A DNA stretch of 15,329 nucleotides from a virus (IMGVR_UViG_2531839583_000004:1-15329); one strand, 5' to 3'. Counted from the first letter of the stretch, positions 1,038 through 5,035 are shown. Translations and numbers: made by a program. The notes: generated by a model not told the origin, from the sequence alone.

Positions 1038-1588
1038 TCGTAAATATGATATACCCGGAAATTACAGGCAAAAGCGGCGAGCATTTACGTCTAAAAACGC
1101 TGGAAGCCGTCTGGATCCAGGGGAAATTACGGATGTGGGGGCGTTGGTCGTATATAGGTGGTGGCAAACCAGGAAATATGTTCAATCAGTTGCTGGCATC
1201 CAAAAAACTGACAAAAACCGCAATCAATGAAGCCCTGCGTAGAATCAGGGAGTCAGGGATTGATAAACCAGAGCTGGAAGCATTCTTGCGAGAGATGATC
1301 GCTGGCAGACAGAAGAGCTGGTTGTCTCACTGTACTGATGCAGAGGCGTTACGCATTGATGGGGTGATAAGTAAAGCGCTTGCACGTTATCCTGGATTGA
1401 TTGATATCCTGCGGCAAAGGTACGAAGGGCGGGGGATGAGTAAACGCAAAATGGCTGAATTGTTGAATGAGGTGCACCCGGAATGGTGTTTTAGTACATG
1501 CGAAAAGCGAATTGCTAATTGGTTAGCTGTTGCTGAATATGCGCTATACATCCCTATGCGAGAATCGTTTGCTCAAAAAATGTCTTGA
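1034..1588 (+). CDS. putative late-gene antitermination protein (Q-like, non-lambda family)
   Basis: 184 aa ORF whose start overlaps the rusA stop (ATGA), suggesting translational coupling. Sits between rusA and a promoter-plus-terminator region, the canonical Q position. Possible His/Cys metal site (SHC...HPEWCFSTC). No recognisable similarity to lambda Q, so function is inferred from position. Confidence 0.5.
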   Translation: MIVNMIYPEITGKSGEHLRLKTLEAVWIQGKLRMWGRWSYIGGGKPGNMFNQLLASKKLTKTAINEALRRIRESGIDKPELEAFLREMIAGRQKSWLSHCTDAEALRIDGVISKALARYPGLIDILRQRYEGRGMSKRKMAELLNEVHPEWCFSTCEKRIANWLAVAEYALYIPMRESFAQKMS

Positions 1589-1613
1589 TTTTTTACGCAT
1601 AAACTGTTTCAAT
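1585..1613 (+). promoter_or_regulatory. candidate late promoter (pR'-like): TTGATT, 17 bp spacer, TTCAAT
   Basis: -35-like TTGATT at 1585-1590 and a weak -10-like TTCAAT at 1608-1613, immediately downstream of the Q-like gene and about 60 bp upstream of a strong terminator, mirroring the lambda pR'/tR' arrangement. Confidence 0.25.
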
Positions 1614-1671
1614 CCAGCTACGCTTCGCAAAGCTATACCGCGAGGCGAATAGCAGACATGGACACCTGAAA

Positions 1672-1697
1672 GAACCCGCTTTATGCGGGTTTTTTTG
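1672..1697 (+). terminator. rho-independent terminator (tR'-like)
   Basis: Hairpin CCCGC (1675-1679) / GCGGG (1685-1689) with loop TTTAT, followed by a run of seven T (1690-1696). Confidence 0.8.
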
Positions 1698-1819
1698 TGC
1701 CCGAAAAGCGGTACAGGACGTTAAATGCGCTGGTGGTTGCGAATGCCGGTCTTTCAGCTTGCTGGCTTTTTCGACAAGAGGTATTGGTATGTCACGTTAA
1801 CCGGAAAAGGGAAAAAGGC

Positions 1820-2017
1820 ATGCTAAAACAGCAGGATATGACCGAAACCGCCAGAGTGGTGTTTAATGAATTAAGCATCACCGAACCGGCGACCGTCGGG
1901 GAAATTGCGCAGAATACTTACCTTTCACGCGAACGCTGCCAGTTAATACTGACTCAGCTTGTTATGGCGGGTCTGGCAGATTATCAGTTCGGTTGTTACA
2001 GACGCCTTCCGCAGTGA
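1820..2017 (+). CDS. small hypothetical protein (65 aa), possible DNA-binding fold
   Basis: ATG at 1820 preceded by a purine-rich stretch (GGAAAAGGGAAAAAGGC). The track ORF 1697..2017 would start inside the terminator hairpin, so the internal start is preferred. Its own terminator follows at 2004-2026. Confidence 0.4.
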   Translation: MLKQQDMTETARVVFNELSITEPATVGEIAQNTYLSRERCQLILTQLVMAGLADYQFGCYRRLPQ

Positions 2018-2026
2018 AGGCTTTTT
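2004..2026 (+). terminator. rho-independent terminator overlapping the 3' end of the small ORF
   Basis: Stem GCCTTC (2004-2009) / GAAGGC (2016-2021) with loop CGCAGT, followed by TTTTT (2022-2026). Confidence 0.6.
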
Positions 2027-2167
2027 AATTTGTGGTAATGGGCGGCTGGGGGGTGTTAGCGGCACCTGCCAGCCATCTGCTCATGCGTTGGGGTCACAAG
2101 CAAACCTCAGGCCCATCTGCTTTGCGCAAAAGCGGTATGAGCCTATCAGAGAAGTGCTTATTGATCT

Positions 2168-3217
2168 ATGATTAATACTGTAAAAATATCCAGTTGTGAG
2201 TTAATCAACGCTGATTGCCTGGAGTTTATCCAGACCTTACCGGAAAATTCTGTCGATCTGATAGTCACAGACCCGCCATACTTTAAAGTGAAGCCCGAGG
2301 GCTGGGATAACCAGTGGGAGGGCGACGATGATTACCTGAAATGGCTGGACCAGTGTCTGGCGCAGTTCTGGCGGGTACTGAAGCCTACCGGAAGTCTTTA
2401 CCTGTTCTGTGGTCATCGCCTGGCATCTGACACCGAAATCATGATGCGTGAGCGCTTTAATGTGCTGAACCACATTATCTGGGCGAAGCCGTCCGGACGC
2501 TGGAACGGGTGCAATAAGGAAAGTCTGCGGGCGTATTTTCCGGCAACAGAGCGCATTCTGTTTGCAGAACATTATCAGGGACCGTATCGCCCGAAAGATG
2601 ATGGCTATGTGGCACAGGGGCGCGAGCTAAAACAGCACGTCATGGCCCCGCTGATTTCTTACTTTCGTGATGCGCGTAAATCACTGGGAATAACGTCAAA
2701 ACAGATAGCGGAAGCCACCGGAAAGAAAAACATGGCTTCGCACTGGTTTGGTACCAGTCAGTGGCAGTTACCGAACGAGGGGGATTACAACAAATTGCAG
2801 GCGTTGTTTGCGCGTGTTGCGGCAGAAAAACATCAGCGCGGGGAACTGGAAAAGCCACACCACCAGCTGGTCAGCACATACAGTGAGCTGAACCGGCAGT
2901 ACACGGAACTGCTGAGTGAATATAAAAATTTGCGGCGGTATTTCGGTGTGACGGCGCAGGTTCCGTACACCGATGTCTGGACGCATAAACCGGTGCAGTA
3001 CTATCCAGGAAAACATCCGTGCGAAAAACCGGCAGAAATGCTGCAGCAGATAATCAACGCGAGCAGTCGTCCGGGAGACCTGGTTGCAGATTTTTTTATG
3101 GGTTCAGGTTCAACGGTAAAAGCGGCGATGGCACTGGGGCGTTGTGCGATTGGTGTTGAGCTGGAGACAGGACGTTTTGAACAGACAGTCAGGGAAGTTC
3201 AGGATTTAATCGTTTGA
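2168..3217 (+). CDS. DNA amino-methyltransferase (N6-adenine or N4-cytosine), beta-class, orphan
   Basis: 349 aa. Motif IV DPPY (LIVTDPPYF) near the N-terminus and motif I FxGxG (DFFMGSGST) near the C-terminus give the beta-class order. A central region with an HTH-like segment (LGITSKQIAEATGK) is the likely target-recognition region. No adjacent restriction endonuclease ORF. Confidence 0.9.
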   Translation: MINTVKISSCELINADCLEFIQTLPENSVDLIVTDPPYFKVKPEGWDNQWEGDDDYLKWLDQCLAQFWRVLKPTGSLYLFCGHRLASDTEIMMRERFNVLNHIIWAKPSGRWNGCNKESLRAYFPATERILFAEHYQGPYRPKDDGYVAQGRELKQHVMAPLISYFRDARKSLGITSKQIAEATGKKNMASHWFGTSQWQLPNEGDYNKLQALFARVAAEKHQRGELEKPHHQLVSTYSELNRQYTELLSEYKNLRRYFGVTAQVPYTDVWTHKPVQYYPGKHPCEKPAEMLQQIINASSRPGDLVADFFMGSGSTVKAAMALGRCAIGVELETGRFEQTVREVQDLIV

Positions 3218-3266
3218 AACGGATGAGATTGCAGAATTAATTACGCACCATTATTATTCTGCTCCC

Positions 3267-3342
3267 GGCCCTTTAGCTCAGTGGTGAGAGCGAGCGACTC
3301 ATAATCGCCAGGTCGCTGGTTCAAATCCAGCAAGGGCCACCA
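3267..3342 (+). tRNA. tRNA with anticodon CAU (Ile2/lysidine-type or Met), including encoded CCA
   Basis: Cloverleaf: acceptor GGCCCTT/AAGGGCC, D-arm GCTC...GAGC, anticodon loop CTCATAA (anticodon CAT at 3300-3302), T-loop GGTTCAAATCC, 3' ACCA. Very close to E. coli ileX and to ileZ of Stx phages as recalled. Confidence 0.9.
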
Positions 3343-3349
3343 TCACATA

Positions 3350-3423
3350 CCGCCATTAGCTCATCGACAGAGAGTGCCAGCTTTCGAAACTGGCTGTGTG
3401 GGGCTCGGGTCCCCGATGGCAAT
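3350..3423 (+). pseudogene. degenerate tRNA-like element (possible decayed tRNA-Arg, anticodon-like TCG)
   Basis: Partial cloverleaf: acceptor CCGCCAT/ATGGCAA with two terminal mismatches, D-arm GCTC...GAGA, anticodon-like stem GCCAG/CTGGC around a 9-nt loop CTTTCGAAA (TCG central), T-arm TGGGG-CTCGGGT-CCCCG. No encoded CCA. Confidence 0.3.
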
Positions 3424-3439
3424 CCATTATCTGCATTAT

Positions 3440-3516
3440 GCGTTGTTAGCTCAGCCGGACAGAGCAATTGCCTTCTAAGCAATCGGTCACTGGTTCGAAT
3501 CCAGTACAACGCGCCA
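3440..3516 (+). tRNA. tRNA-Arg (anticodon UCU), including encoded CCA
   Basis: Acceptor GCGTTGT/ACAACGC, D-arm GCTCAGCCGGACAGAGC, anticodon loop CTTCTAA (anticodon TCT), T-loop GGTTCGAATCC, discriminator G plus CCA at 3514-3516. Resembles the argU/argO type. Confidence 0.9.
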
Positions 3517-3529
3517 CGCTTATTTTTCC

Positions 3530-3554
3530 AGGCTCGCTTTGGCGGGCCTTTTTC
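3530..3554 (+). terminator. rho-independent terminator downstream of the tRNA cluster
   Basis: Stem AGGCTCGC (3530-3537) / GCGGGCCT (3542-3549) including one G-U pair, loop TTTG, followed by TTTT (3550-3553). Confidence 0.5.
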
Positions 3555-3763
3555 ATATCCGCGCCCGTTATGAAGCGCCACCGCGTTCTGCTAATGCTGA
3601 AGCCCTTCGTCAGCTGACTGATGTTGCAGATACTGATGATACTGTGAATGTGCTGTGTCTGTGTCTGGATATCGCTGACCAGGACGGTATCGGTCAGGAA
3701 GAAGAAGCGCAACTGAAGAAAATTGCGCAGGCGCTGCAGTTGCCGCTGGAGCAGTACCTGTGA
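3539..3763 (+). pseudogene. TerB-like C-terminal fragment (probable gene remnant, 74 codons, no ATG start)
   Basis: ORF begins at TTG inside the terminator hairpin and has no in-frame ATG. The translation (VLCLCLDIADQDGIGQEEEAQLKKIAQALQLP) resembles the C-terminal half of TerB/DjlA-N-type domains as I recall them. GC-rich. Confidence 0.3.
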
Positions 3764-3912
3764 AAAGTGCGCGCCTTGTGCTGGCTGTCATCCTGTTGTT
3801 TCTGGTAGTGATGGTGGATTTCACCGGACGACTGATGTCAGTGCTGGCAGATGGTGTGCTGGTGGCGATGGCGCTGATCGTGCTCCGGCCTTTACTGCGT
3901 AAATCTGAATAA
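3760..3912 (+). CDS. small hydrophobic membrane protein (50 aa), GTG start overlapping the upstream stop
   Basis: GTG at 3760 overlaps TGA 3761-3763 (GTGA). Translation VKSARLVLAVILLFLVVMVDFTGRLMSVLADGVLVAMALIVLRPLLRKSE predicts two hydrophobic helices. Below the ORF-track size cutoff. Confidence 0.35.
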   Translation: MKSARLVLAVILLFLVVMVDFTGRLMSVLADGVLVAMALIVLRPLLRKSE

Positions 3913-4000
3913 CATCACACAAAAGGCATCTGCGGGGGCCTTTGACGGGGTGTTTTTTTACGGGTCGCTGGTGGCCCTTTTTTTATTTTCAGGAGGAAGT

Positions 4001-4390
4001 ATGTCTGAACCCTTATCCGGTTCCGGCACGGCTGCGGCGCTGGGTGGCGCGACGGTATTCGGGCTGTTTACCGGGATGGATTTCGGGATTGTGTTTGGCG
4101 CGTTCGCCGGGGCGTTATTTGTGGCAACGATGCCGCAGTCACTTTCAGTCTGGCGCGTGGTGGCGCATTTTCTGGTGTCGTTTATTGTCGGCGTGCTGGG
4201 AGCGCGTGTGCTGTCAGCCTGGATTGCATCAAAAACAGGGTATGACGGTACATCGGCAGATGCGCTGTGTGCGGTGCTGGTATCGGTGGTGTCGGTGAAG
4301 ATTCTGTCGTTCATCCACCAGCAGGATATTGCATCGTTGGTGTCCGGTGTGTTCTCCCGTCTGCGGGGTGGAGGCGGTAATGTTAAGTAA
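4001..4390 (+). CDS. putative holin (multi-pass membrane protein, 129 aa)
   Basis: Strong Shine-Dalgarno AGGAGGA 5 nt upstream of ATG 4001. Gly/Ala-rich hydrophobic segments with a charged C-terminal tail. First gene of a cassette ending in an endolysin. No similarity to lambda S recalled. Confidence 0.55.
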   Translation: MSEPLSGSGTAAALGGATVFGLFTGMDFGIVFGAFAGALFVATMPQSLSVWRVVAHFLVSFIVGVLGARVLSAWIASKTGYDGTSADALCAVLVSVVSVKILSFIHQQDIASLVSGVFSRLRGGGGNVK

Positions 4391-4655
4391 CCTTCCCGGA
4401 TTACTGAATGTGGTGTTAAGCACGGTTATCGTGCTGACGCTCTTTTTTTATCGTCGTGGTGATTCCAGACATAAACCGCTGATGTCGTGGCTGGCCTGGC
4501 TGCTGATGCTGCTGTATGCCTTTGCGCCACTTTGTTATCTGTGTGGTCGCTTTCCACCCGGTAACTGGCTGGTCGTCCTGATTAACCTGGTGTTCTGCGT
4601 GCTGGTGATACGAGCACGCGGGAACGTATCAAAAATCCTTTCATTACGGAGGTGA
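4380..4655 (+). CDS. second lysis-cassette membrane protein (holin/antiholin-like, 91 aa)
   Basis: GGAGG 5 nt upstream of ATG 4380; overlaps the holin 3' end by 11 nt; stop is 2 nt before the endolysin start. Predicted 2-3 transmembrane segments. Confidence 0.5.
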   Translation: MLSNLPGLLNVVLSTVIVLTLFFYRRGDSRHKPLMSWLAWLLMLLYAFAPLCYLCGRFPPGNWLVVLINLVFCVLVIRARGNVSKILSLRR

Positions 4656-4657
4656 GT

Positions 4658-5035
4658 ATGCCCGGTAAATTCAGATTCAGTCGTCGAAGTGAGAAAAATC
4701 TGGAGGGCGTCAAACCACAGCTGGTTGCTGTTGTTCGCCGTGCGCTGGAGCTGACGGAGGTTGACTTCGGTATTACGGAAGGCCTGCGCAGTAAGTATCG
4801 CCAGAAGCAGCTGGTCGCGGAAGGGAAAAGCCAGACCATGAACAGCCGCCACCTGACCGGTGATGCGGTGGATGTTGTGGCCTACATTGGTAGCCAGGTG
4901 TCATGGGACTGGCCTCTGTACGAGAAAATCGCGCAGGCATTTAAGCAGGCTGCCGCAGAGCTGGGAACTGCCATCGAATGGGGCGGGGACTGGAAAACAC
5001 TGAAAGACGGGCCTCACTTTCAGTTGAAGTGCTAA
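4658..5035 (+). CDS. endolysin, peptidase M15 family (L-alanyl-D-glutamate endopeptidase, T5 Lys-like)
   Basis: GGAGG 5 nt upstream of ATG 4658. Conserved Zn-ligand context SRHL...DAVD...DGPHFQL (His, Asp, His) typical of M15 phage endolysins. About 126 aa. Confidence 0.85.
   Translation: MPGKFRFSRRSEKNLEGVKPQLVAVVRRALELTEVDFGITEGLRSKYRQKQLVAEGKSQTMNSRHLTGDAVDVVAYIGSQVSWDWPLYEKIAQAFKQAAAELGTAIEWGGDWKTLKDGPHFQLKC

Follow-up and report, generated by a model that had tools for sequence, protein, structure and literature searches.

One of the closest described relatives of the locus reported here is the tciA-tciB-tciC operon of phage P1, which encodes TciA, a 141-aa protein of the TerB family, and directly after it TciB, a peptide of about 50 aa whose start overlaps the tciA stop. 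The operon lies among phage tRNA genes, including one for tRNA-Ile2(CAU), and belongs with them to the C1-repressed ban operon. D6-like phage-plasmids have tciA and tciB as well, located "in the tRNAs region" and presumed to be morons (PMC6799933); the tci operon varies among P1-like phage-plasmids and has frequently been lost from them (PMC9603915), and tciA, tciB, and tciC were non-essential in a P1 CRISPR interference screen (PMC10695390). We examined a 15,329-nt stretch of viral DNA, IMGVR_UViG_2531839583_000004:1-15329 (the window; positions are counted from its first letter, and all features named lie on the + strand), which is a lambdoid prophage of a type known from enterotoxigenic Escherichia coli (ETEC). 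We put at close to nine in ten the probability that its cargo slot, between the phage tRNAs and the holin (3517-3950), holds a P1-type tciA-tciB accessory ("moron") cassette in which tciA has been killed by a 353-bp deletion between short repeats and tciB is intact. A preliminary description of this sequence had offered two readings of the slot, the decayed footprint of a former cargo gene or a small, uncharacterized module expressed late. Each was partly right, with tciA decayed and tciB intact behind its own GGAG. The two genes already have names, as the tciA-tciB cassette of P1 and many lambdoid prophages, and a pseudogene mark for this copy already exists in RefSeq.

The likeness to P1 extends to about 80% nucleotide identity over the tciA gene and to the arrangement of the pair. 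The window differs in that tciC is absent, tciA is cut to residues 74-141, and the cassette sits in what appears to be a Q-dependent lambdoid late operon rather than in the ban operon. Also close are the intact lambdoid cassettes, such as those of E. coli strain CFSAN018748, the O157 Sakai prophage Sp10 (ECs_1959), and phage JLK-2012; tciA and tciB are annotated in the latter two and also in phages CharmingMan and SJ46. Like the window cassette, they follow Q-proximal tRNAs and a terminator hairpin and precede the lysis genes; the boundary of the leader is shared too, as is tciB with its GTGA overlap. They keep a 174-nt spacer from tRNA to ATG, including the hairpin, and all 141 codons, whereas the window is without 353 bp of this.

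The same slot carries the toxin genes in Shiga toxin (Stx) phages, as had been proposed from the gene order. Window positions 3200-3565 match 290 phage records, mostly Stx2 converting, at about 90% identity. In the Stx2 phage PA2 the order is Q, a methylase remnant, ileZ, argN, argO, stx2A (91 nt after the tRNA-Arg gene), stx2B, other genes, and the holin; positions 3116-3565 of the window are 89% identical to this phage over 450 nt, and then the similarity stops. The conserved block ends in a terminator hairpin followed by the motif ATATCYGCGCC, and beyond it the cargo differs. The window thus shares with the stx2AB loci of PA2 and of 933W-type phages the upstream elements (Q, a methylase or its remnant, ileZ, argN, argO, the hairpin, and the motif) and the placement of cargo between tRNAs and holin in the late operon; it differs in that the cargo is unrelated and the downstream lysis genes are of another type. 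The earlier statement that the slot holds no toxin was also borne out: with Stx2A and Stx2B as tblastn queries, the lowest E value anywhere in the window was 1.3, and there is no nucleotide similarity to PA2 past 3565.

What the slot does hold became clear from comparison with close relatives. At the same place in CFSAN018748, a gene for a 141-aa "tellurite resistance TerB family protein" is followed by one for a 50-aa "DUF3927 family protein." The window has a 74-aa open reading frame (ORF) at 3539-3763, which starts with TTG and, as described before, lacks an ATG. This ORF can be aligned base by base to the 3' half of the 141-aa gene, and it matches positions 73-143 of the 143-position PHROG family phrog_632, "tellurite resistance" (E = 1.3e-22), in agreement with the earlier suggestion that it is the C-terminal half of a TerB-like domain. 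On its own it fails the Pfam TerB model PF05099, with 14.1 bits where 24.4 are required (E = 0.06), which the full-length orthologue of CFSAN018748 passes with 31.6 bits. A TerB-family match of the 74-aa translation, a check set beforehand, was therefore borderline by Pfam alone and positive by PHROG and comparative evidence. The ORF had also been called GC rich; its G+C content of 0.53-0.565 lies within the 0.49-0.595 found nearby. The tciA remnant proper, identified by phrog_632, the alignments, and the prokaryotic genome annotation pipeline (PGAP), comprises codons 74-141 and the stop of the 141-aa gene (3555-3763). It shows 12 differences in 204 nt from the nearest full-length allele (about 94% nucleotide identity), and remnant, tciB, and downstream spacer together are 96% identical to the full-length allele over 452 nt.

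Aligned with the CFSAN018748 allele, the window shows a single clean gap of 353 bp. In the full-length allele, an 11-bp direct repeat, ATATCCGCGCC, stands at both ends of the missing stretch, with the first copy directly after the post-tRNA terminator and the second at tciA codons 73-76. The window keeps one copy only, at 3555-3565, and this marks the deletion junction. Lost were 136 nt of leader, the Shine-Dalgarno (SD) sequence AAAGGA (AAAGGA-N8-ATG), the ATG, codons 1-72, and the first base of codon 73. This pattern is the classic signature of a short-repeat deletion, from which we infer that recombination or replication slippage between the two copies of ATATCCGCGCC, or a microhomology event, removed the 353 bp. 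We compared 81 related full-length loci, and both copies of the repeat are present in 36 of them; the architecture is therefore deletion prone, and recurrent deletions are predicted.

Codons 1-5 of the 74-aa ORF, the TTG at 3539 among them, are terminator hairpin and T-run rather than TciA, and the frame is open from 3539 only by chance. The remnant has neither an ATG nor a usable SD sequence, and its sole in-frame start, that TTG, sits inside the terminator stem. Intact TciA is predicted to be a cytoplasmic protein with a six-helix TerB fold and two acidic loop motifs. In fold comparison the predicted structure resembles 2h5n and 2ou3, the latter a COG3793 "tellurite resistance protein"; searches of PDB chains by sequence, with a single sequence or a profile, gave no meaningful match, and fold comparison alone worked. 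The breakpoint falls inside helix 3 (residues 58-80) of this model, so that the remnant is an incomplete TerB domain lacking the full bundle with both acidic motifs. Beginning midway through helix 3 and lacking any start signal, it is probably a dead pseudogene.

The second gene of the cassette is intact. tciB (3760-3912, GTG start) encodes a 50-aa hydrophobic peptide that passes the DUF3927 model PF13064, scoring 54.6 bits where 25 are required (E = 1.1e-14), and matches phrog_1470, "TciB-like" (E = 1.7e-23). Its start overlaps the stop of the 74-aa ORF in GTGA (3760-3763), as previously noted, and GGAG lies 8 nt before the GTG. In an alignment of 25 family members, the window TciB has every invariant residue: L13-F14-L15, V19-D-F-T-G23, S27, D31-G32, and P44. 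Its hydropathy profile peaks twice, at residues 8-17 and 36-38, and dips at DFTGR between them, and each end of the peptide is basic; this makes the two-helix membrane peptide of the preliminary description, as a hairpin, plausible.

Of 5,426 complete E. coli genomes, 22 carry the deletion allele, as identified with a junction-spanning probe. The carriers are mostly ETEC; many have strain names known as ETEC or come from humans (H10407, ATCC 43896, TW10828, ETEC-2264, and the human isolates of the E8 to E1739 series), and a few are environmental. A closely related full-length tciA-tciB occurs in 165 genomes, and 981 contain some tciA-like sequence. Among the 22 copies of the deletion allele, no more than one base differs in 347 nt, and the nearest intact allele is 96.0% identical to them. 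The allele occurs in two prophage backbones, an H10407 type and an IrN type, which differ in their Q and terminase genes, and it must therefore have moved by recombination.

This spread is one of the points in favor of an alternative in which tciB is a functional module by itself: the orphan peptide, made from the late transcript, would have an effect without TciA, such as one on the integrity of the membrane or the timing of the holin, and would for that reason be intact in ETEC. The retained GGAG-N8-GTG, the full set of invariant residues, and a confident helical model of TciB also fit such a module. The distribution of tciB does not. Species-representative genomes contain 11 tciB matches. 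In each of the seven that cover the peptide essentially from end to end, tciA lies immediately upstream, and the four without tciA are all partial, so that no whole-length match stands without tciA. Likewise, tciB directly follows the 141-aa tciA in 81 of 81 related loci, with the GTGA overlap in 80. The near identity of the 22 copies means that intactness is expected from youth alone, and 22 carriers compare with 165 genomes that have the close full-length allele. This pairing argues that tciB is not maintained by itself and that the window copy is intact because the deletion is recent. We regard a self-sufficient tciB as unlikely, and we give slightly less credit to the broader idea that the deletion allele is kept in ETEC prophages since either an orphan, late-made TciB or a half-TerB product is itself active, for example, in membrane permeabilization or lysis timing.

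Partial copies of tciB take several forms. In the two Escherichia albertii loci, L092 and L097, only residues 2-34 and 17-36 of TciB are matched. tciB is truncated from its 5' end to a 35-aa ORF in L089, and L094 has no listed open frame of at least 35 aa. The latter two (L089, 2909-3135; L094, 2886-3123) appear to represent independent, larger decay of the cassette in other Enterobacteriaceae. The tciB fragment there directly follows the methylase gene (L089) or the Q-like gene (L094), neither locus has a tciA match, and the gap of about 90-115 nt, judged by length and without a tRNA scan, is too small for tRNA genes.

Could the 74-aa ORF instead encode a genuine small protein, half of a TerB domain able to fold or dimerize by itself? 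Its frame is open for 74 codons, and over positions 2-74 it matches a 74-position family of its own, phrog_9865 (E = 1e-50), which appears to have been built from the same truncated ORF. RefSeq is inconsistent on this DNA: in H10407, PGAP enters it as a pseudogene ("incomplete; missing N-terminus"), and in IrN-type genomes the same sequence is called an intact 93-aa "TerB family protein." The 93-aa call in IrN (L002, 4283-4564, equivalent to window positions 3482-3763) is an annotation artefact, because it starts at an ATC inside the tRNA-Arg gene (4241-4317). A hint of an internal repeat came from Pfam, which aligns both halves of TciA to the same positions, 60-111, of the TerB profile. We rejected an internal duplication, since BLASTP of one half against the other was empty and the model is one bundle, which the breakpoint cuts through helix 3. 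The position of TTG 3539 in the terminator stem with no SD also speaks against a working half domain, as do four replacements in the remnant, S81P, A94T, G98D, and A102T, all at positions invariant in the 81 full-length genes. Such a protein is, in our judgment, very unlikely. That the region is noncoding spacer with a chance resemblance to TerB might be read from the insignificant Pfam match of the ORF alone, but the phrog_632 match, the identity to the full-length 3' half, and the DUF3927 score of tciB already refute it.

In lambdoid phages, Q-modified RNA polymerase starting from pR' reads through terminators. The window has a Q-like late antiterminator gene at 1034-1588 (Pfam DUF1133, E = 6.4e-103, with a weak Phage_antitermQ match; phrog_753, "anti-termination protein Q-like," E = 8e-78). 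Right after its stop, TTGATT-17-TTCAAT at about 1586-1614 is a weak, putative pR'-like promoter. It is followed by a tR'-like intrinsic terminator at 1668-1699, read from the sequence as the hairpin AACCCGC-TTTAT-GCGGGTT plus T7. The terminator scan missed this hairpin, apparently since the stem can extend into the T-run; the fold of 1618-1702 is -34.3 kcal/mol (z = -4.86). Promoter-like element and hairpin with its U7 would yield a short transcript of about 75 nt. The region also has a subthreshold Rfam match to isrK (1622-1695; 21.6 bits against 50). A weaker hairpin (2004-2021) was found by the scan at the end of a small ORF between the tR'-like hairpin and the methylase gene. After the last tRNA, the scan gave an intrinsic terminator at 3530-3554, with an 8-bp stem and loop TTTG (the hairpin itself is 3530-3549) plus T5, folding at -16.1 kcal/mol (z = -2.35); it is kept in PA2, Sakai Sp10, and JLK-2012, that is, in tciAB and stx phages alike. 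Two more hairpins lie between tciB and the holin (3921-3977), and the second (3962-3977 plus T7) is terminator-like; as a whole, 3910-4000 does not fold significantly (z = -0.98).

Q-modified polymerase from pR' would pass the hairpins at about 1668-1699, 2004-2021, and 3530-3554 and also that at 3962-3977 before the holin. The tRNAs, cargo, and lysis genes would thus be expressed late, because the antiterminated transcript would read through these hairpins, as the biology of lambdoid phages suggests. tciB should still be transcribable in this way and, after the deletion, would be reached by the late transcript only; it would have lost both translational coupling and its TciA partner. In prophages of enteropathogenic and enterohemorrhagic E. 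coli, the small RNAs (sRNAs) PasA and PasC are reported to lie directly upstream of holin genes near TerB genes (PMC13192938, a 2026 preprint). An Rfam scan of 1500-4500 gave no Pas-type RNA above threshold, with no Pas sequences used as query.

The intact cassettes tell more about the pair. The cassette has a sharp left boundary at GCGCCACGCCCGGCGC (L003, 4356-4491, and 80 IMG/VR loci, L008-L087), and the tciA leader of about 160 nt is nearly invariant across 45 distinct upstream sequences, with different tRNAs or none. Structured RNA in the leader was considered and rejected, the fold being no better than that of shuffled sequences (z = -1.14). tciAB usually lies beside phage tRNA genes, whose identity varies (Ile2/Arg/Arg, Thr/Gly, Lys/Thr/Gly/Val, and, in P1, Asn/Thr plus Ile2); tRNAs are found within 1.5 kb upstream in 54 of the 81 loci. 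One 196-aa protein, P0060, is a natural in-frame fusion of TciA to a P1-type TciB, with Pfam TerB and DUF3927 in one chain, and is consistent with the two working together. Neither TciA, whether full length or as the remnant, nor TciB matched any anti-phage defense model of PADLOC-DB at E ≤ 0.1.

The family name invites comparison with the terZABCDE operon. TciA shares with its TerB component the Pfam TerB model, which it passes, and the predicted fold described above; its partner is a 50-aa peptide and not TerC. The window ORFs tested by Pfam, PHROG, and PGAP include no ter family besides TerB, and the neighbors are a methylase, tRNAs, holins, and an endolysin. To our knowledge, tellurite resistance has never been shown for TciA. 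As a best guess, TciB anchors a cytoplasmic TerB-type domain, whose acidic loops probably bind metal, to the inner membrane, and TciAB may modulate envelope or membrane stress in the lytic phase.

Several points weigh against our account of a dead tciA beside an intact tciB. tciB is intact and identical across the 22 deletion-allele genomes, which fits a recent origin and also fits retention. The 12 differences between the remnant and the nearest intact allele are 8 synonymous and 4 non-synonymous by codon alignment. The ratio of non-synonymous to synonymous change (pN/pS) is 0.17 against a background of 0.105, and with 12 differences this is not significantly relaxed; we therefore rejected relaxed selection on the remnant, of which the four invariant-site replacements are only suggestive. 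The remnant may formally be translated from TTG 3539 or from an internal GTG. The deleted leader contains no sigma-70 consensus promoter, so that expression in the lysogen phase may or may not have been lost. AlphaFold2 draws TciB as one continuous helix (residues 2-47; mean predicted local distance difference test score [pLDDT], 92.5) and not as a hairpin, so the two-helix part of the preliminary description agrees with the hydropathy and disagrees with the model. The role proposed above for TciAB is argued from family resemblance only.

Upstream of the cassette, the window has two called tRNAs, as listed before, and a third, decayed one that had been overlooked. The first, with anticodon CAU (3267-3342; ARAGORN; Rfam, 72.5 bits; PGAP, tRNA-Ile), is an ileZ-type tRNA-Ile2 gene identical at 65 of 76 positions (86%) to trnI, the tRNA-Ile2 gene of phage P1. 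The other is an argO-type tRNA-Arg(UCU) (3440-3516; ARAGORN; Rfam, 70.1 bits). Between them lies an argN-type tRNA-Arg(UCG) pseudo-tRNA (3350-3423), which reaches 23.7 bits against an Rfam threshold of 29, has mismatches at the acceptor end, receives no ARAGORN call, and folds no better than shuffled sequence (z = -0.41). The equivalent position has an intact tRNA-Arg in strain IrN, where it is annotated, and in Stx2 phages. A subthreshold Rfam match to STnc100 at 3411-3556 (17.7 bits against 47; E = 0.76) overlaps tRNA-Arg(UCU) and the terminator. The STnc100 family is reported to be common near Pas sRNAs in prophages (PMC13192938). The match is probably meaningless here.

The rest of the window is consistent with a lambdoid prophage. 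It is 98.7% identical to strain 504838 over 99% of its length and 98.0% identical to ETEC H10407 at 94% coverage. The prophage copies of H10407 and ATCC 43896, otherwise near-identical, carry an IS66-family (ISCro1) insertion within the matched stretch; the window and 504838 are without it. Q is preceded by a DUF968 gene (45-671) and RusA (672-1037). An N6/N4 DNA methyltransferase gene follows at 2168-3217 (Pfam N6_N4_Mtase, E = 6.5e-45; PGAP, "DNA-methyltransferase"). Then come the tRNA cluster, the terminator hairpin, the two small ORFs, two holins, and an endolysin. The first holin (4001-4390; Pfam Phage_holin_8, E = 3e-23; PGAP, "putative holin") forms the downstream edge of the slot. The second holin (4329-4655) and an M15 peptidase, the endolysin (4652-5035), were both identified by Pfam and PGAP, and terminase and head genes come after. 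From Q through the holins, every gene has the same orientation. The order given in the preliminary description, from the Q-like gene and tR'-like terminator through the methylase and tRNAs to the lysis genes, was accurate, with each feature where it had been placed.

The cassette was already known and annotated, and its deletion is an ordinary inactivation. Beyond correct annotation of a sequence that RefSeq treats as a pseudogene in H10407 and as an intact protein in IrN-type genomes, the significance is small: the Stx-equivalent slot of a non-Stx ETEC prophage carries a common tciAB cassette, inactivated by a simple repeat-mediated deletion. The wider question of TciA and TciB, which are highly conserved, always paired, and usually near phage tRNAs, is better studied in an intact copy.

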